In this document: positions 8,701-43,522 of the stretch, in pieces
Position numbering within the stretch: position 1 is the stretch's first letter
How the letters are laid out: each line of letters starts with the position of its first letter
Sequence record: MN850566.1
Source: Escherichia phage garuso
Direction: 5' to 3' (one strand)
Length of the DNA stretch: 64,000 nt
Notes under the pieces: model-generated
What the model was told of the DNA's origin: nothing
What the model saw: only the letters and a program-made list of their open reading frames with translations
Databases searched by the model: none
Program-made: the position numbers and the translations under genes

Positions 8701-8712
8701 ACAGATACTATA

Positions 8713-8741
8713 AGGGAACTGTAAAGGTTCCCTTTTTATTT
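8713..8741 (+). terminator. Intrinsic terminator
   Basis: GGGAAC-TGTAAAG-GTTCCC hairpin followed by TTTTTATTTT. Confidence 0.65.
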
Positions 8742-9267: not shown

Positions 9268-9538
9268 AGAGAAGTGGGAGATTTTACCATTAGTCAGTGA
9301 AGGCGGTAATGGTTGTGAAATGTACATGATACGTGGTCATGTTCCAGAACCAATTGCACTTGAGATGGTAAACAACTTTACAGATGGCTCTTACAAAGAC
9401 TTAGGGGAGCCAAATATAAAGCAGCAATGGGTAAAGCCTGTACCAGACAGCACAGGTAACTGTAGTGTACTTTATCACGTTGTAGACCCTGCAAAATGCA
9501 AATCTGCAATGGCAGTAACAAACGTAACTTTTGATTGA
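9260..9538 (+). CDS. Hypothetical protein (92 aa)
   Basis: Track ORF overlapping neighbours. Confidence 0.4.
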   Translation: MAKEKWEILPLVSEGGNGCEMYMIRGHVPEPIALEMVNNFTDGSYKDLGEPNIKQQWVKPVPDSTGNCSVLYHVVDPAKCKSAMAVTNVTFD

Positions 9539-9549
9539 GAGAGAAAACT

Positions 9550-10431
9550 ATGAAAACTGTTATTGAAGCCGTCGTCACCGCACAAGAGAAATTCTTCCAC
9601 ACAGAAAAATTTAATATCATTCAATTCCCATCTGGAGAAATTGGTGGAAACTTCTCTGAAGATTTTGTTAAGTTTACTGAGCGTAATGCTGGTAAGATTG
9701 ATAATGTTATAATTACTGTACAGGGATATGACAAAGATACACTGTTTGCATTAGCTTTGGCTAAGGATGCCGTTGACAGTCTTGTTCCCCAGAAATCAGC
9801 GATGAAAACCGTTGTTTTCGGGTTCTTACCAAATGCTCGATATGACCGCCACATGTTCAAAGGTGATGCAGCAGCACTGAAAGTCTTTGCCAACCTAGTT
9901 AATGCAATGGGTTTTGATGCAGTATGTGCTCTTGACCCTCACAGTAATGTTGCAGAAAACTTATTTAAGTGCTTTCAAAGCATGAAGCAAAAAGATGTGG
10001 CAGTACACTTTGCAAGTGACCCACGCATTGATTTCTTGGTAGCCCCAGATGCAGGTGCAGCTAAGAAGACTGAAGATACCGCTAAAGAGGTGGATAAACC
10101 GTATATCACAATGTCTAAGGTGCGCAATCTTAAGACTGGTGAAATTACTGGTATGCGAATCCTTGATGATGTTGATTTGACAGATAAAACTGTCATGATT
10201 CTGGATGATATTTGTGATGGAGGCCGAACCTTCGTAGAGGCAGCTAAACACCTACGTGAAGCAGGTGCAAAACGTGTGGAACTCTATGTAACTCATGGTA
10301 TTTTCTCTAAAGGTGTTGAAAACTTACTTGACAACGGTATTGACCATATCTACACTACAAACACTTTAGGTGAAGCTAAAGACCGTGGCTTAACACATTA
10401 CGCCCAAGTTACTGTAGCAACCATTGATTGA
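9550..10431 (+). CDS. Ribose-phosphate pyrophosphokinase (Prs)-like protein
   Basis: ATG 9550 inside track ORF 9535..10431; type-I phosphoribosyltransferase signature (VMILDDICDGGRTFVEAAKHLREAGAKRV); directly upstream of the NAMPT-like gene. Confidence 0.75.
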   Translation: MKTVIEAVVTAQEKFFHTEKFNIIQFPSGEIGGNFSEDFVKFTERNAGKIDNVIITVQGYDKDTLFALALAKDAVDSLVPQKSAMKTVVFGFLPNARYDRHMFKGDAAALKVFANLVNAMGFDAVCALDPHSNVAENLFKCFQSMKQKDVAVHFASDPRIDFLVAPDAGAAKKTEDTAKEVDKPYITMSKVRNLKTGEITGMRILDDVDLTDKTVMILDDICDGGRTFVEAAKHLREAGAKRVELYVTHGIFSKGVENLLDNGIDHIYTTNTLGEAKDRGLTHYAQVTVATID

Positions 10432-10476
10432 AACTTTATAGGGGCTTGAAAGCCCCACTTTGAGAGAGATTAAAAG

Positions 10477-12258
10477 ATGACTAAATCACTTTACGCAGTA
10501 CCAGCAGGTCTTAATGCAGATGCTTACAAGGCATCACATATATATCAGTATCCAGATGCTACGCAATATCTTATGTTGAACCTGACACCACGTAGTGATA
10601 AATGGTTTAACAGCCCTTTGGCAATTGACGGTGTAGTGGCTTTTGGTATTCAACGTTTCGTTAAAGATTACTTGATAGACCACTGGAACGCCACTTTCTT
10701 TGAACGTGATAAAAAAGAAGCCATTGATGAAATCTTAGAAATCATGAATGGTGTTCTGGGTAAAGATGCTATCGGTCGAGAGCACTGGGAAGCACTTCAC
10801 GACTTAGGTTATCTACCAGTTGAAGTATACGCTGTAGAAGAAGGTACAGTTGTCCCTATGCGCGTCCCAATGATTGTCTTCCAGAACACTGTTTCAGGCT
10901 TCCATTGGGTAGCGGGGTATCTGGAAGATGCTTTCTCTGCTGAGATTTGGAAGGCTTGTACCATTGCAACTATTGCATTGCACTACAAACGTATCTGTAA
11001 GAAGTGGGCTGACCTTACTTGTGACAACGACTTGCATTTGCCTTATCAGTGCCATGACTTTGCTATGCGTGGTATGTCCGGCTTTACTGATGACGCATTT
11101 AACGCTGTAGGCCACTTAACCAGCTTTAAAGGAACTGATAGCTTCCCTGCTGTGTATACGGCTAAACGAATCTATGGACAGTCCTACCCAATCTCTGATA
11201 TTGGTAGCTCTGTACCAGCCACTGAGCACTCTGTAATGTGTGCAAACATTGCTTGGGAAGGTGGTAATGAGTTGATTGAAGAAGAAAGACGCTTTAAAGG
11301 TGAGTTACAAACCTTCCGTCGTTTCTTAACAGAAACTTACCCAACTGGTATTGCAAGTGTTGTTTCAGACACTTATAACTTCTGGAGAACTGTGTCAGAA
11401 ATTTTACCAGCACTTCGTAAAGAAATTATGGAACGTGATGGCAAACTGGTAATTCGTCCTGACTCTGGAGACCCTGTACATATTGTCACAGGTTATAAAG
11501 CAATCCACTTAGAATGTGCTAAAAAGGCTTATTACGAGCACCTAAGCAAGCTGGAAGCCAGTGACACAATGTTGAATGCTGTTCTGAACATGAAGCTTGA
11601 AAATATCAACTATGGTATTGCTGGATGGCTACTGTCAGAAGGCTACGAAATGGTTGTTGACAGAGAAGACTTTGAAGTTGCTGATACAGTGATGTTGAAA
11701 AATGCTTATATGGTTGGTTCTGCAAACGTTGTAACACGTCCTGTAGCTGAGATTGATGGAGCTATTAAGACACTGTACAACATTTTTGGGGGAACTATTA
11801 ACTCTAAAGGGTTTAAGGTACTGGATGAGCATATCGGACTTATCTATGGTGACTCTATCACGCTGGAACGTGCAAACGAAATCCTGAAGCGTCTGTATGA
11901 AATGGGGTTTGCAAGCTCTAACGTGGTGTTTGGTGTAGGCTCTTACACTTACCAGTACATGACTCGTGACACCTTTGCATTTGCTGTCAAAGCAACTCTT
12001 GCAAGCATTGGTGGCAAAGAGATTATGCTTGCAAAAGACCCTAAAACAGATAGTGGTGTTAAGAAATCTGCCTTTGGTGGTGTAGCGCCTATGTGGGATG
12101 GTGATAAGTTGAAAGCTGTAGATGGCTATGGAATACAGAGTTTTGCAGATGCACTTGAACACCCAGCTTGTGCTTTACGTTTAGTCTTTAGCGACTCTGA
12201 GCAGTTCGGTTATACAACTCTTGGTGATATTCGAAATAATATTGACAAGCAGCTTTAA
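10477..12258 (+). CDS. Nicotinamide phosphoribosyltransferase (NAMPT/NadV)-like protein
   Basis: 593-aa ORF; N-terminal NAMPT-like motif (…DAYKASHIYQYP…); GAGAGAG RBS; terminator downstream at about 12273-12296. Confidence 0.75.
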   Translation: MTKSLYAVPAGLNADAYKASHIYQYPDATQYLMLNLTPRSDKWFNSPLAIDGVVAFGIQRFVKDYLIDHWNATFFERDKKEAIDEILEIMNGVLGKDAIGREHWEALHDLGYLPVEVYAVEEGTVVPMRVPMIVFQNTVSGFHWVAGYLEDAFSAEIWKACTIATIALHYKRICKKWADLTCDNDLHLPYQCHDFAMRGMSGFTDDAFNAVGHLTSFKGTDSFPAVYTAKRIYGQSYPISDIGSSVPATEHSVMCANIAWEGGNELIEEERRFKGELQTFRRFLTETYPTGIASVVSDTYNFWRTVSEILPALRKEIMERDGKLVIRPDSGDPVHIVTGYKAIHLECAKKAYYEHLSKLEASDTMLNAVLNMKLENINYGIAGWLLSEGYEMVVDREDFEVADTVMLKNAYMVGSANVVTRPVAEIDGAIKTLYNIFGGTINSKGFKVLDEHIGLIYGDSITLERANEILKRLYEMGFASSNVVFGVGSYTYQYMTRDTFAFAVKATLASIGGKEIMLAKDPKTDSGVKKSAFGGVAPMWDGDKLKAVDGYGIQSFADALEHPACALRLVFSDSEQFGYTTLGDIRNNIDKQL

Positions 12259-12272
12259 AAGTATATGATAAG

Positions 12273-12296
12273 AGGCTCCTACGGGAGCCTTTTTAA
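12273..12296 (+). terminator. Intrinsic terminator after the NAMPT-like gene
   Basis: GGCTCC-TACG-GGAGCC hairpin followed by TTTTTAATTT. Confidence 0.65.
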
Positions 12297-12311
12297 TTTC
12301 TGGAGAAAACT

Positions 12312-12647
12312 ATGAAAATCAAAGAGATGAACATCAACATTGTCTTAGAAGAACGTTGGGAGAACATTAAGAAACCTGAAGATGGTAAAAAGTTCCTTAA
12401 CAAAATTTTAGTAGCAGCTAAAGAAGAACTGACTGGCAAGATTGCAGCAGCAATCACAATAAAAATCTGTGTAAAAGGTCTTCCACAACATCACCAATTT
12501 GCACTTGACGAGTTTAAAGAAAGCTTCTACAATCCAAACAAACAGATGCTTGAAAGTAACTTTGCAGTGTCTACAAGTATCGTCCATGACAGAAGCTTTA
12601 TCCTTTACAAGAATATGAGAGGTGAGTCATGCAAGCATATTGGATAG
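12312..12647 (+). CDS. Hypothetical protein (111 aa)
   Basis: Track ORF; GGAGAAAA RBS. Confidence 0.45.
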   Translation: MKIKEMNINIVLEERWENIKKPEDGKKFLNKILVAAKEELTGKIAAAITIKICVKGLPQHHQFALDEFKESFYNPNKQMLESNFAVSTSIVHDRSFILYKNMRGESCKHIG

Positions 12648-12833: not shown

Positions 12834-15200
12834 ATGCGCATGGTAAACGACCACGCAGAAGTGATTAAGAGTTCAACTTCTTTGGAGACATCTCAAGCAC
12901 AGATTACAATGACACCTGAAATGTTCAGCCTTTTGAGTTCAGGTGTATACACATTCAAAGAAAGGGCAGTGATTCGTGAACTGTCATGTAACGCAGTAGA
13001 TGCTCAAAAAGAAGCTGGAAAAGAGAACATCCCATTCCATGTGCATTTACCTACTCGATTTGAGCCTTACTTTGAAGTCCGTGACTTTGGAACTGGTTTA
13101 ACCCATGACAAAGTAATGAGTTTGTATCTGAACTATGGGGCTTCTACGAAGAATGACTCCAATGATTACATTGGTGCAATGGGTATCGGCTCAAAATCCC
13201 CATTTGCAATTGCTCAGTCATTCACAGTATCTAGCTATGTTGATGGTGTTGTTAATAAGTACTCTGTTTACCTTGAGAATGGTATCCCTCAAGTAACTAA
13301 GCTTACTACCAACCCAACAAATGAACCCAATGGTTTAGCTGTACGTGTGGCAGTTGCTGACCATCGTATTTCAAAGTTCTTTGAAGAGGCTGGTCACGTA
13401 TACTCATACTTTGCTGTAAAACCAGAAAGTAACATTGTGTATGATGATGTATTAGCAGATATGAATGTCATTGCCCGTGAAGAGGGTGTTTATGATGCTA
13501 TGATTCATAAGCAAAGCTGGCGTTCTAGTGGCAACAGGACAGAGTTTAATGTGGTGATGGGTAATATTGCCTACCCAGTGAACATGGAAGCATTACTTGG
13601 TGATGATTTCTTCAAAGTCTTGCCAGAGTTTTTCCGTAGGAGCGTAGACCTTGTAAACATCTACATGCCTATTGGTTCAGTGGCTATTGCAGCTTCTCGT
13701 GAAGCATTGCAGATGAATGACACGACAAAAAATGTTATCATTGAGGCTACTAAAAAGATAACTGAAGCCATTACAAAGGATGTTATCAAGAAAGTTAACA
13801 ACCAACCTACACTCATGGATGCTGCACAGGCTTATGCTGAGTTACGTTTGAACTCACGAGAGATGTTTAATGCTGTGTGTCCAAAGCTAGAGTGGGGAGG
13901 CATTAAGCTTGATTCTCTGGAAGAAGAATTACTAAACATTCGTCGTGGGATTATCTACGCAGAAGACGGCTCAGTCATTTATGAACGTGACGGTAAAGGT
14001 AATATCAAGGTTGATAGGAACGGGAACAATATCCCTAAAGTGGATTATCTTTATAATCCAGTTGCTTATGTCAAGTTCAACTCTTTAGAGAGTAAGATTC
14101 GTGCAGCAGCACTTTCCTACACTCAAGAGGCAAGTATGTTCAATATCTTTGGTGCAATGCGTAAAAGCCAAATTGAACAGTTTTTGTTCGTGATTAATGA
14201 CCGTCGTAATAAAAATGGCACTGAGAAGACTGTAGGCCGCAATCAGATTCTGCGTGGTGCATGTCGAGACTACGCTAGCGAGTCAAGCCTGTTCCACAGA
14301 TACAATGGTATTGTGTTTGTATTCTCGACTGAAAAAGAGTTAGATGATTTAATCAATCTACACAAGCTTGATAAAAGTTTGTTAAAGATTGTGAAGATGT
14401 CTGATAAGGAACACCATTATCAGCGTAAAGAAGCTGTGAGGGGTGTTGTAAAACTCTGGAAAGCTGTTCCATCAGAAACTAAAGCTTCATACACAGAGGT
14501 GTCAGAAGACCTAGATACAATTGAAGAACCCCAGCTTTATATCAAGGCAGTAGGCGACACAGTTGATGGTGAATGTTTTTGCTCATCCCCAGAAGATGTA
14601 GCTAAAACAATTGCTAATGTTATAGGAAAAACAGTCTATGTTTTCCGAAAAGCAAATTGGAAAAAGATACCAGAAGACTGGATTGAAGTAGATGAGAAGC
14701 TATTGAATGACAGCTTAACTGATGTTCACTGGATTAATCATAACAGGTATATGACACGTATCTATATGAATGGTGTCCTTGACCTTACAAGTAGTTGGAT
14801 TATTGCCAGAAACTTTACGTTTAATAACAAGAAGATTTCTCGCGGGTATTGCTATTCACGAGATACAAACAAAACCATCTTCTTAGAAGGTAATGAGAAT
14901 GCTGTTGAGGCAATGTTTGGTAAGATTCAGTATGTGGCTGCACCGTTTGCATACACTTACACTATCAGTGTTCTTCAGGATTTGAAGTCATGCCTTGACA
15001 ATGATACAAAACTGTACAAAAAGATTAAGAAAGCGGGTGACCGCATGGTTATCAAACTGACAAACTATCTTTCAAAAAGAAAACAAGAAAACTTCTTGCT
15101 TTCTCATTTAGATTGGAATAAAGTGTCACCCATCGAAGTGAGTAAGTTCTTAGGTTTTGATGTGAAGTGTGTTCCAGAAGGAACTACAATTTACGATTAA
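12834..15200 (+). CDS. Hsp90/HtpG-like GHKL ATPase-domain protein (788 aa)
   Basis: N-terminus has Bergerat-fold boxes in Hsp90-like order: AVIRELSCNAVDA (N box), DFGTGLT (G1), GAMGIGSKSPF (G2); AGAGGA RBS; remaining ~600 aa unassigned. Confidence 0.55.
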   Translation: MRMVNDHAEVIKSSTSLETSQAQITMTPEMFSLLSSGVYTFKERAVIRELSCNAVDAQKEAGKENIPFHVHLPTRFEPYFEVRDFGTGLTHDKVMSLYLNYGASTKNDSNDYIGAMGIGSKSPFAIAQSFTVSSYVDGVVNKYSVYLENGIPQVTKLTTNPTNEPNGLAVRVAVADHRISKFFEEAGHVYSYFAVKPESNIVYDDVLADMNVIAREEGVYDAMIHKQSWRSSGNRTEFNVVMGNIAYPVNMEALLGDDFFKVLPEFFRRSVDLVNIYMPIGSVAIAASREALQMNDTTKNVIIEATKKITEAITKDVIKKVNNQPTLMDAAQAYAELRLNSREMFNAVCPKLEWGGIKLDSLEEELLNIRRGIIYAEDGSVIYERDGKGNIKVDRNGNNIPKVDYLYNPVAYVKFNSLESKIRAAALSYTQEASMFNIFGAMRKSQIEQFLFVINDRRNKNGTEKTVGRNQILRGACRDYASESSLFHRYNGIVFVFSTEKELDDLINLHKLDKSLLKIVKMSDKEHHYQRKEAVRGVVKLWKAVPSETKASYTEVSEDLDTIEEPQLYIKAVGDTVDGECFCSSPEDVAKTIANVIGKTVYVFRKANWKKIPEDWIEVDEKLLNDSLTDVHWINHNRYMTRIYMNGVLDLTSSWIIARNFTFNNKKISRGYCYSRDTNKTIFLEGNENAVEAMFGKIQYVAAPFAYTYTISVLQDLKSCLDNDTKLYKKIKKAGDRMVIKLTNYLSKRKQENFLLSHLDWNKVSPIEVSKFLGFDVKCVPEGTTIYD

Positions 15201-15279: not shown

Positions 15280-16389
15280 ATGACTACTAAAACTAAAGCA
15301 CAGATTGACGCAGAAATTTACGAACTGGTTAAAGAAGGTAAGCTGACTAAAACAGCTATTGCACAGAAGTTCAATACTTCAACCCGTTCAGTTGGTCGTG
15401 CTGTAGAGCGTCATGAAGCAACCTTAAAAGGTAAGAAAAAGGTAGCTTCTAAACCAGCTACGAAGACTTTGAAGCAAGTTGCTAAATCAGTTAAAAAGAA
15501 AGCTGACAAACCAGTTGAAAAGGTTGTTAAAGAGCCTGTACAGAAAGCTCCGGTAAATAAACTGCATGAAGCTATGCAGAATGGCAACCAGATTGAGTAC
15601 ATGATTACTGGCGACTCTGTTATCATGACTTTCGGTGCAGATTCTGAAATCGTTGAATCTACCCATCCGAACTACAAAGAAATCGTGATGGCTGTTGTAT
15701 CCGGTGAGTATAAGAAAGCTTTCGAACTGATGAACATTCGTAAGTCTATCGAAAACTTCACTCAGGGTGCTATCACCATCAAAGGTGACAAGTTATTCTA
15801 CGGTGCTGTTGAGATGCGTTCTACTCTGGTTGACCGTATTCTTCACATGATGAAGACTGGAGATAAGGGTTTTGAACGCCTTGTGATGTTCTTCGAAAAA
15901 CTGATGGAAAACCCATCTAAAGACTCTGTAGAACAACTTTGGGGATTCGTATCTCACCTTGATGTTGAAATTGATGAAGAAGGCTACATCATTGGTTGGA
16001 AGAAAGTCTCTACTCATGAAGGCAAGCTGGTTGACTCCCACACCTACAGAGTACCTAATGATTTGGGTAACATTGTAGAAATGCCACGTTGGATGGTTGA
16101 TAATAACCGTAACGTGACTTGCTCTCAGGGTCTTCACGTTGGTGCTTGGGATTATGTTCGTTGCTTCTCAGGTGATACAATCCTGAAGGTTCGTGTCCAT
16201 CCACGAGATGTTGTATCTGTTCCAACTGATTACAACGATATGAAGATGCGTTCGTCTCGTTATGAAGTTGCAGCAATCGTTGATAATCAACGTAAAGTGC
16301 TGAAAGAATGGGATGGCAAGACTGAAGCTTTGCATGTCATCGTTGGCACTGCTGGTGAACTAATCTCCCAACGTAAACGTGAAATCTAA
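15280..16389 (+). CDS. Hypothetical protein with possible N-terminal DNA-binding region (369 aa)
   Basis: Track ORF; own promoter-like TTGACA-N17/18-TAGAAT at about 15206-15237; terminator downstream at about 16405-16432. Confidence 0.5.
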   Translation: MTTKTKAQIDAEIYELVKEGKLTKTAIAQKFNTSTRSVGRAVERHEATLKGKKKVASKPATKTLKQVAKSVKKKADKPVEKVVKEPVQKAPVNKLHEAMQNGNQIEYMITGDSVIMTFGADSEIVESTHPNYKEIVMAVVSGEYKKAFELMNIRKSIENFTQGAITIKGDKLFYGAVEMRSTLVDRILHMMKTGDKGFERLVMFFEKLMENPSKDSVEQLWGFVSHLDVEIDEEGYIIGWKKVSTHEGKLVDSHTYRVPNDLGNIVEMPRWMVDNNRNVTCSQGLHVGAWDYVRCFSGDTILKVRVHPRDVVSVPTDYNDMKMRSSRYEVAAIVDNQRKVLKEWDGKTEALHVIVGTAGELISQRKREI

Positions 16390-42248: not shown

Positions 42249-42327
42249 GCTCCATTACTCCAATTGGCAGAGAGGCCAGACTTAAAATCTGTGTTATGTA
42301 TCGGTTCGAATCCGATATGGAGTACCA
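42249..42327 (+). tRNA. tRNA-Leu (anticodon TAA), short (7-nt) variable arm
   Basis: Acceptor GCTCCAT/ATGGAGT, A73, Leu-type D-arm (CTC-CAATTGGCAGA-GAG), loop CTTAAAA, T-arm ATCGG-TTCGAAT-CCGAT, CCA encoded. Confidence 0.55.
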
Positions 42328-42332
42328 AATTT

Positions 42333-42408
42333 AGCGGCATAGCATAACTGGCAATGCAGCAGTCTCTGAAGCTGTCTTATTAAGGTTCAAATCCTTATGC
42401 CGCTGCCA
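42333..42408 (+). tRNA. tRNA-Gln (anticodon CTG)
   Basis: Acceptor AGCGGCA/TGCCGCT, D-arm GCAT…ATGC, anticodon stem GCAGT/GCTGT with loop CTCTGAA, T-arm TAAGG-TTCAAAT-CCTTA, CCA encoded. Confidence 0.7.
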
Positions 42409-42439
42409 CTTCTAAGGATTCTTACGAGAGTCCTTAAAT

Positions 42440-42515
42440 GTGGCCTTATCATAAACGGTAATGACCCATGCTGTGAACATGGTCTATACGGGTTCAAATC
42501 CCGTAGGTCACCCCA
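42440..42515 (+). tRNA. tRNA-His (anticodon GTG)
   Basis: Acceptor GTGGCCT/AGGTCAC, D-arm TCAT…ATGA, anticodon stem CCATG/CATGG with loop CTGTGAA, T-arm ACGGG-TTCAAAT-CCCGT, CCA encoded. Confidence 0.7.
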
Positions 42516-42520
42516 ATTTA

Positions 42521-42597
42521 TAGTCCAAGTAGCTTATATGGTTAAAGCGCGTGTCTGAAAAACATGAGAAGAGGGTTCAAATCCCACTGGACTACCA
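42521..42597 (+). tRNA. tRNA-Phe (anticodon GAA)
   Basis: Anticodon stem CGTGT/ACATG with loop CTGAAAA, T-region GAGGGTTCAAATCCCAC; acceptor/discriminator assignment ambiguous; 3' end overlaps the GTG-initiated extension of the next track ORF. Confidence 0.6.
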
Positions 42598-42613
42598 ATT
42601 TCAAAGGTGCTTA

Positions 42614-43348
42614 ATGAAAGAGATGACAGAACAAGGTAAGGAGATTTTCAATCTCTTAAAAACTGGTAAAGGGTTTTCTAACCCCCTTATTACTGGTGCA
42701 GCAGTTCTCGGTGGAACCGTAGCTGCCTCCACATCACTTGTAAGCTCTATTAGTTCTGTATCAGACCCTACAGTAAAAGATAAGCTTGTTGCTGCTGGAC
42801 TTACAACAGTTCTGCTTAACAGCTTTACCACGAGTCTGACAAGCACTACATCAACTACCAAAACACTAACAGATTACGGTCAAAAATCCATTGATGAGTT
42901 TTCATCACGTATGCAGGTAGCAAAAGGTTATTCTAATGTTATGGGTGCAGCAGGTGAACAAGTTGGCTGTACACCATTTAGTGGTATTATGGGTGTTGCT
43001 ACAGAGTATGGTCAAAAAGCTATTGATACGATTAACAGTGCACTAGATAGTGTTAATGGTGTGTTAAGTGACTTACAAGATGCTATTGACAAAGGTCTTG
43101 ATACTATTTCTGATTTAGCTGAGCAAGCTGTTAGTAAGATTAATGAAGGTATTTCAAAAATTACAGCTTATGCAGATGAAGTTGTGCAGATGATTGAAGA
43201 AGAAGCTGCTCTTATTGCAGAGTACCTTAAAACGAATATCAATGGGTTCTTAGCAGGTATCTTACCAGACTGGTTTGATGATGCTTGTAAAACTGGTGTA
43301 ATTGACACTATTGCAACACCAGAAATGAAGAACGCATTACAGAAATAA
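42614..43348 (+). CDS. Hypothetical Ser/Thr-rich protein (244 aa) inside the tRNA cluster
   Basis: In-frame ATG at 42614 (AGGTG RBS) inside track ORF 42551..43348, whose GTG start would overlap tRNA-Phe; low-complexity S/T-rich N-terminal half. Confidence 0.5.
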   Translation: MKEMTEQGKEIFNLLKTGKGFSNPLITGAAVLGGTVAASTSLVSSISSVSDPTVKDKLVAAGLTTVLLNSFTTSLTSTTSTTKTLTDYGQKSIDEFSSRMQVAKGYSNVMGAAGEQVGCTPFSGIMGVATEYGQKAIDTINSALDSVNGVLSDLQDAIDKGLDTISDLAEQAVSKINEGISKITAYADEVVQMIEEEAALIAEYLKTNINGFLAGILPDWFDDACKTGVIDTIATPEMKNALQK

Positions 43349-43349
43349 T

Positions 43350-43442
43350 GGAAGATTAACCCTAAAAGGTAAGGGAGCAGTTTGCTAAACTGCCAGTAGC
43401 TGAGAAATCGGTGTACCAGTTCAAGTCTGGTATCTTCCTCCA
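43350..43442 (+). tRNA. tRNA-Ser (anticodon GCT), long variable arm
   Basis: Acceptor GGAAGAT/ATCTTCC, anticodon stem GCAGT/ACTGC with loop TTGCTAA, long variable arm, T-arm ACCAG-TTCAAGT-CTGGT, CCA encoded. Confidence 0.7.
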
Positions 43443-43446
43443 ATTT

Positions 43447-43522
43447 GAATCCGTGACAGAAATGGATATGTGCCTGTCTGCAAAACAGGTTTATAAGGGT
43501 TCGAGTCCCTTCGGATTCTCCA
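43447..43522 (+). tRNA. tRNA-Cys (anticodon GCA)
   Basis: Acceptor GAATCCG/CGGATTC, U73, anticodon stem CCTGT/ACAGG with loop CTGCAAA, T-arm AAGGG-TTCGAGT-CCCTT, CCA encoded. Confidence 0.7.

Follow-up and report, generated by a model that had tools for sequence, protein, structure and literature searches.

A probable NARP1 counter-defence operon in Escherichia phage garuso, a close relative of phage Bas63

Organization of the adps-namat locus

The analysed DNA is a stretch of 64,000 nucleotides of Escherichia phage garuso (sequence record MN850566.1), hereafter called the window. It carries two adjacent genes, adps and namat, whose products resemble phosphoribosyl pyrophosphate (PRPP) synthetases (PRPS) and the nicotinamide phosphoribosyltransferase NAMPT, respectively (Table 1). 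We suggest, with a probability of about 0.93, that the pair is the NARP1 counter-defence operon of a Felixounavirus. Adps is then the predicted ADP-ribose (ADPR) pyrophosphate synthetase and Namat the predicted nicotinamide ADPR transferase of a pathway that would rebuild NAD+. The operon as such is already known: it is the published NARP1, found again here in a phage very closely related to the type phage. The case adds nothing new to it but serves as a positive control, since a counter-defence system was recognised from sequence alone in spite of misleading database names (Prs, nicotinate or nicotinamide phosphoribosyltransferase). An insertion in Namat and an unlinked Macro-domain protein of the Adpp family are modest leads beyond the known NARP1.

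The initial annotation of the window described a Prs-family gene directly followed by a NAMPT-family gene. Both are indeed plus-strand open reading frames (ORFs) at the positions that it gave, and the two peptides quoted in it, VMILDDICDGGRT and DAYKASHIYQYP, are found in the translations. The mechanical ORF of adps begins at 9535 with a TTG that overlaps the stop of the preceding gene. The start at ATG 9550 has a Shine-Dalgarno-like GAGAGAGA run just before it and is the same in all annotated relatives. The spacer between the two genes is 45 nt long and contains a second GAGAGAGA run together with the GC hairpin of Table 1, which was not called by the terminator scan. This hairpin might be a candidate transcript-stability or attenuation element, tuning the relative expression of the two enzymes.

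Table 1. Features of the NARP1 region and its surroundings (positions in the window)
Feature	Position	Strand	Basis or remark
Terminator-like hairpin, 9-bp stem and T-run	8712-8734	+	Terminator scan
Ortholog of Bas63 gp77, 171 aa	8752-9267	+	Synteny with Bas63
Ortholog of Bas63 gp78, 92 aa	9260-9538	+	Synteny with Bas63
adps, PRPP-synthetase-like (PRPS-like) predicted ADPR pyrophosphate synthetase, 293 aa	9550-10431	+	ORF, PHROG 619
GC hairpin GGGGCT-TGAA-AGCCCC in the adps-namat spacer	10441-10456	+	Sequence inspection; no T-run after it
namat, NAMPT-like predicted nicotinamide ADPR transferase, 593 aa	10477-12258	+	ORF, PHROG 448
Small Namat insertion, residues 259-275, WEGGNELIEEERRFKGE, just after His251	11251-11301	+	17 residues versus 4 in short forms
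Large Namat insertion, lineage-specific alpha/beta module, residues 340-427	11494-11757	+	88 residues versus 16 in short forms
Intrinsic-terminator-like hairpin, 10-bp stem with 5 GC pairs, then T-run	12270-12293	+	12 nt after the namat stop
rIIA ortholog	12834-15200	+	
rIIB ortholog	15280-16389	+	
Macro-domain protein, Adpp/Tk.4 family, 261 aa	19740-20525	+	7.5 kb downstream of NARP1

Family assignment and relatives

The family assignments of both proteins are confirmed far beyond chance. Adps matches Pfam PF00156 (7e-12) and PF14572 (2e-10) and belongs to PHROG 619 "ribose-phosphate pyrophosphokinase" (2e-99). Namat matches PF04095 (7e-35) and PF18127 and belongs to PHROG 448 "nicotinamide phosphoribosyl transferase" (6e-202). 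With window positions 9300-12500 as megablast query, 257 of 50,697 phage records were matched, nearly all of them Felixounavirus (Ounavirinae) with Escherichia, Salmonella, Shigella and Citrobacter hosts. The best match at the DNA level is phage tootiki (98.9% identity), and phage JohannRWettstein, which is the BASEL phage Bas63, is 96.4% identical.

The proposal that the two enzymes are an ADPR-pyrophosphate synthetase and a nicotinamide ADPR transferase is borne out by their identity to the NARP1 proteins of Bas63. Adps shares 291 of 293 residues (99.3%) with Bas63 gp79 (bas63_0079) and Namat 578 of 593 (97.5%) with gp80 (bas63_0080), both in ungapped alignments. Genus, gene order, spacer, the lengths of 293 and 593 aa and both Namat insertions are common to the two loci, which differ by 2 substitutions in Adps and 15 in Namat. 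Immediately beyond the namat terminator, Bas63 carries a further ORF of 345 nt, bas63_0081, that is missing from the window. Adps is, in addition, 100% identical to a protein of phage momo.

Of the best 25 phage matches, 20 are annotated, and all 20 bear the names Prs and nicotinate or nicotinamide phosphoribosyltransferase. These misleading GenBank names are explained by the profile models that the proteins pass. Namat scores 471 bits against the NCBIfam equivalog NF006629 "nicotinate phosphoribosyltransferase" (cut-off 405), whereas Adps passes only the broad subfamily TIGR01251 (139 bits, cut-off 113) and stays below the cut-off of every NCBIfam Prs equivalog (49-114 bits versus 296-536; at best 114 versus 296).

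Two allele groups of Adps are seen in Felixounavirus, at ~95-100% and ~78-80% identity to the window protein, which suggests that operon alleles may be exchanged between lineages. Two records stand out by their source organisms: GU169904 (Staphylococcus phage SA1) has 95% DNA identity to the NARP1 region, and MG065668 (Campylobacter phage A126) has 87% protein identity to the Macro-domain protein described below. Both are probably chimeric or mislabelled.

Published evidence on the Bas63 operon

The work on NAD+ rebuilding by phages to which the initial annotation pointed does exist and agrees with what was stated there (10.1101/2024.02.11.579819, 10.1101/2024.10.10.617714). NARP1, composed of Adps and Namat, was discovered on genes 79-80 of Bas63 by Osterman et al. 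(bioRxiv 10.1101/2024.02.11.579819). Without these genes the infection of SIR2-HerA cells by Bas63 is abolished and the NAD+ loss is deeper, and a new metabolite, ADPR pyrophosphate (ADPR-PP), appears in Bas63-infected cells only when the operon is present (10.1101/2024.02.11.579819). A partial rescue of NAD+ by the Bas63 operon has been reported. In the independent PhageMaP work, the plating of Bas63 on Sir2-HerA drops by 1e4-1e6 when either g79 or g80 is deleted singly and recovers on complementation (10.1101/2024.10.10.617714). With regard to the chemistry, purified Adps of Bacillus phage SpbetaL1 pyrophosphorylates ADPR using ATP, and purified SpbetaL1 Namat converts ADPR-PP and nicotinamide to NAD+, preferring ADPR-PP over PRPP (10.1101/2024.02.11.579819). 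Both reactions have been carried out with purified enzymes of SpbetaL1, ICP1, Paenibacillus foliorum and DyoEdafos. The criterion of Osterman et al. for NARP1 is that adps has a Namat homologue no more than ten genes away; in the window the two genes are immediate neighbours on one strand.

Active-site residues of Adps

Residues of Adps were mapped by alignment to the Adps gene of Vibrio phage ICP1 (32% identity), using the criteria in PMC13586617. The catalytic Lys on the beta-hairpin is kept (K190, corresponding to K185 of ICP1 and K162 of SpbetaL1). So are the acceptor residues R97, H131 and D167 (R87, H121 and D161 of ICP1) and F16 (F18). The PP loop D219-D223 with the DDICDG motif is identical to D212-D213-I214-C215-D216 of ICP1. 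The proteins differ in the PP-loop residues A218-A219-S220 of ICP1, which are G-R-T in the window, and at one adenine contact that is considered below. A sequence search of a PDB copy without the ICP1 Adps structures returned canonical PRPS entries only, at best with E 1e-18.

At its C-terminus, Adps falls ~25-30 residues short of PRPS. At the sequence level, it ends at residue 293 and its alignment with human PRPS1 stops at chain residue 289 of 318-326, which would be compatible with a lack of the C-terminal alpha11-alpha12 module of PRPS. With canonical Prs and NAMPT/NadV the pair shares the folds and the reaction logic, that is, pyrophosphoryl transfer to the C1 hydroxyl of ribose followed by displacement of pyrophosphate by nicotinamide. 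The substrates of NARP1 are different: Adps takes ADPR in place of ribose-5-phosphate as acceptor, and the donor for Namat is ADPR-PP in place of PRPP.

Structure and adenine clamp of Namat

The best sequence matches of Namat in the PDB are the crystal structures 9w5w and 9w5x of SpbetaL1 Namat (PMC12774641; E 1e-128); NadV and human NAMPT rank below them. Structure prediction with AlphaFold2 from an alignment of 69 sequences gave a model with pLDDT 93.9 and pTM 0.92. In the fold search with this model 9w5w/9w5x again come first, at a target-normalised TM of 0.95, followed by HdNadV and human NAMPT. Residues were mapped by HMMER alignment to PDB 9w5x, the numbering of which agrees with PMC12774641 at 20 of 20 named positions.

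The nicotinamide/ribose-phosphate core is kept in the window protein: F195, R198, D221, A248, R327, D329 and G458-D459, with the SpbetaL1 counterparts F189, R192, D215, R306 and D308; the catalytic His is H251. Other residues that contact the ligand in SpbetaL1 Namat correspond to D15, Y17, K42/W43 and the stretch G488-D498. The motif of the selectivity-clamp helix (SCH), GS-X-phi-X-phi-X-phi-TRD, is found at 488-498 as GSYTYQYMTRD, with Tyr at three of the three X positions, where aromatic residues are expected. The clamp loop (SCL) of Namat proteins has Arg, Lys or Tyr in third position and a stacker; in the window K42 aligns to the stacker R40 of SpbetaL1 and is followed by W43, and this arrangement of a Lys and then the stacker has been described for Bas63 Namat (PMC12774641). 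Thus the window protein shares the fold, the catalytic core and the adenine-clamp logic with SpbetaL1 Namat, but it is only ~38% identical to that protein, which has ~490 aa, lacks both insertions and has R40 as its stacking residue where the window has K42-W43. Taking both enzymes together, every published catalytic or specificity residue that can be mapped is present, apart from conservative changes.

Short-form Namat homologues of 496 aa with the clamp motif GS[YF]TYQYNTRD are also encoded on chromosomes of Klebsiella, Cronobacter, Kosakonia and Phytobacter (for example, P0068, P0073, P0087 and P0088), in agreement with the bacterial NARP1 homologues of PMC12774641.

Proposed mechanism and alternative explanations

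We suggest the following sequence of events, based on the mechanism published for NARP1. A host defence (SIR2-HerA, a TIR or SEFIR system, DSR2 or Kongming) would cleave NAD+ to ADP-ribose and nicotinamide. Adps would then use ATP to convert ADPR to ADPR-PP. Namat, acting as a NAMPT-like dimer, would displace the pyrophosphate of ADPR-PP with nicotinamide, giving NAD+ directly, and its adenine-binding clamp would account for the preference for ADPR-PP over PRPP. With NAD+ restored, replication of the phage could continue. By analogy with the homologues we infer, with very high confidence, that the window proteins themselves would catalyse the two reactions.

Several points weigh against this assignment. 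The assays with purified enzymes used homologues of ~32-38% identity and not the Felixounavirus proteins. The third phi position of the SCH motif of Namat is Met, where Asn or Val is usual. The adenine contact F92 of ICP1 Adps aligns to M102 in the window protein, with F103 beside it, and the published mechanism assigns no part to the two Namat insertions. Finally, Namat homologues retain residual formation of nicotinamide mononucleotide (NMN) from PRPP in vitro, so that a PRPP-dependent flux is possible.

The last point also speaks for canonical salvage, in which a true PRPP synthetase and a true NadV/NAMPT would make NMN for conversion to NAD+ by host NadR or PncC. The domain names (PF00156/PF14572 and PF04095), the score above the NF006629 cut-off and the GenBank annotations of relatives all fit such a scheme. 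However, ADPR-PP accumulates in infected cells, and SpbetaL1 Namat, when given both substrates, forms NAD+ and no NMN (10.1101/2024.02.11.579819). In the window, moreover, Namat has the adenine-clamp motif, which is absent from NAMPT, and Adps fails every Prs equivalog model. Canonical salvage is already largely refuted for Bas63, and we consider it improbable for garuso. Even less probable is a general metabolic role, with the pair raising the supply of NAD+ or nucleotides whether or not a defence is present. The operon does lie in a nucleotide-metabolism region near the ribonucleotide reductase (RNR) and NrdD/NrdG genes, but PhageMaP places the pyrophosphokinase genes in nonessential genome segments and finds that g79/g80 act conditionally in counter-defence, on hosts that carry a defence (10.1101/2024.10.10.617714). 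Besides, ADPR and nicotinamide arise in quantity only after NAD+ cleavage.

We give hardly any weight to a NARP2-type pathway, that is, a NAMPT working with a phage NMN adenylyltransferase (Nmnat) as in Vibrio phage KVP40. Namat does belong to the same superfamily as KVP40 Nampt (10.1101/2024.02.11.579819), yet its partner gene is Adps and not Nmnat, the Namat-specific SCH motif is present, and the annotation of phage tootiki (98.9% identity) lists no Nmnat up to 20 kb away on either side. The published tree also sets the clade of Adps-associated Namat proteins apart from the Nampt of NARP2 (10.1101/2024.02.11.579819).

Insertions in Namat

It had been pointed out for the window that the NAMPT-like protein exceeds the canonical length by about 100 aa, and an extra domain was proposed. 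The excess is real (593 aa versus ~495 aa in short-form relatives) and is made up of two insertions, one of which folds as a module of ~88 residues. The bounds of the insertions come from alignments of long and short relatives, and the alignment to the PDB structure breaks between residues 342 and 428. Long-form Namat proteins (~580-610 aa), down to 46% identity, are encoded by Felixounavirus, by phiSUSP1-like and Silverhawkium-like phages and by Yersinia phage P778, Pectobacterium phage Arno162 and Salmonella phage SB18. Across these relatives the large insertion is 68-94 residues long.

The large insertion is confidently predicted to be a compact unit of three helices and a small sheet. Its block pLDDT is 93-97 in the full-length model; folded alone, the insertion gives pLDDT 85.9 and pTM 0.75. 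It resembles no known fold and has no significant Pfam match, the sole match being DUF4528 at E 0.06. In the predicted topology it follows the helix after the R327/D329 strand, which would place it away from the active-site face. A literature search found no discussion of a Namat insertion, and the structure paper PMC12774641, which aligns Bas63 Namat, never mentions it.

The large insertion diverges much faster than the rest of the protein (41-50% identity where the core has 84-88%). In P0028, an otherwise close relative, a window-type large insertion is combined with a different small insertion, which we read as a sign of module swapping. Unrelated insertions of ~91 residues are found at the same site in P0094 and P0098, so that the site is a permissive hot spot. 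The large insertion could provide a regulatory, partner-binding or inhibitor-evading surface.

Distal Macro-domain protein

The product of the gene at 7.5 kb downstream of the operon is annotated as "putative phosphatase" in relatives. Its N-terminal part matches Pfam Macro PF01661 (31.8 bits, cut-off 22), and no family match was obtained for its C-terminal region of ~100 aa. The protein belongs to PHROG 335 (E 8e-112), together with Adpp of Vibrio phage Gary and Tk.4 of T4, and is 27% identical to Gary Adpp over the whole length of the latter (pairwise E 1e-13). Its best sequence relatives in the PDB are TARG1/OARD1, with weak matches to Poa1p. An anti-DarT function of the protein is neither supported nor excluded; its score against the NCBIfam DarG model is 48 bits (cut-off 250).

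In NARP1-AP, Gary Adpp acts as a phosphatase on ADPR-1''-phosphate, an activity demonstrated by experiment (10.64898/2026.01.28.702374). The garuso genome, like that of Gary, thus encodes a PHROG 335 Macro protein along with NARP1. In Gary, however, the order is Adps-Adpp-Namat, with the Macro gene between the other two, whereas in the window it lies far downstream and its product has the extra C-terminal region. For a locus to count as NARP1-AP, a gene with a Macro domain has to lie no more than two genes away from the operon. This class was rejected for garuso, because no Macro domain is present in the two ORFs on either side of the operon, and the locus is therefore plain NARP1. PHROG 335 is probably not restricted to NARP1 phages, since T4, which encodes a member of it, is not known to carry adps or namat.

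The Macro protein might nevertheless act in trans, as the accessory of a split NARP1-AP. If so, these phages could also restore NAD+ cleaved by defences of the aRES type, against which plain NARP1 fails. Were the protein to supply ADPR from ADPR-1''-phosphate in this way, the published 15% of NARP1 phages that are aRES-protected would be too low a figure. The wider idea that Felixounavirus NARP1 exceeds the two-enzyme core, with the Namat insertion as a functional add-on and a split NARP1-AP acting in trans, is tentative, and we regard it as rather unlikely.

Operon context and neighbouring genes

The hairpins at 8712-8734 and 12270-12293 are the probable 5' boundary and 3' end of the transcription unit, respectively. 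The four genes between them (gp77-like, gp78-like, adps and namat) would then form a single transcript. Neither of the two small upstream genes has a significant Pfam match, and they are not part of the NARP1 chemistry. According to a preprint, Bas63 gp77 counters retron Ec67 and is described as GIY-YIG. Since the gp77 ortholog lies in one terminator-bounded block with adps and namat, the block may be a small cassette of counter-defence genes. Inspection by eye of the gp77 ortholog also reveals an HNH-like stretch, GHHKPVTKGGEHHCANW...NQKQGD.

The wider neighbourhood is as in Bas63 and tootiki and is typical of the genus, with the RNR and NrdD/NrdG genes upstream and rIIA/rIIB downstream. The Bas63 orthologs of the latter, g84 and g85, are reported to counter QatABCD. 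The promoter scan was uninformative, because 15 sigma-70 sites were found where 9.9 +- 3.1 are expected. The best sigma-70-like match in the region, TTGACA-16-TATGAT (11/12), is at 12242-12269 on the plus strand, overlapping the end of namat and abutting the terminator stem. It may drive the downstream genes.

The segment just downstream of the namat terminator (12259-12311; L001 5960-6362) is an insertion hot spot, and bas63_0081 is located there in Bas63. In LinBro, ekra and ECML-1 an HNH homing endonuclease lies within the 3.2-kb match, and the alignment is split by an insertion of ~470 bp, the site of which is approximate; the window lacks it. Further downstream, 25 tRNA genes are clustered at 38045-43522 on the plus strand, which is typical of Felixounavirus.

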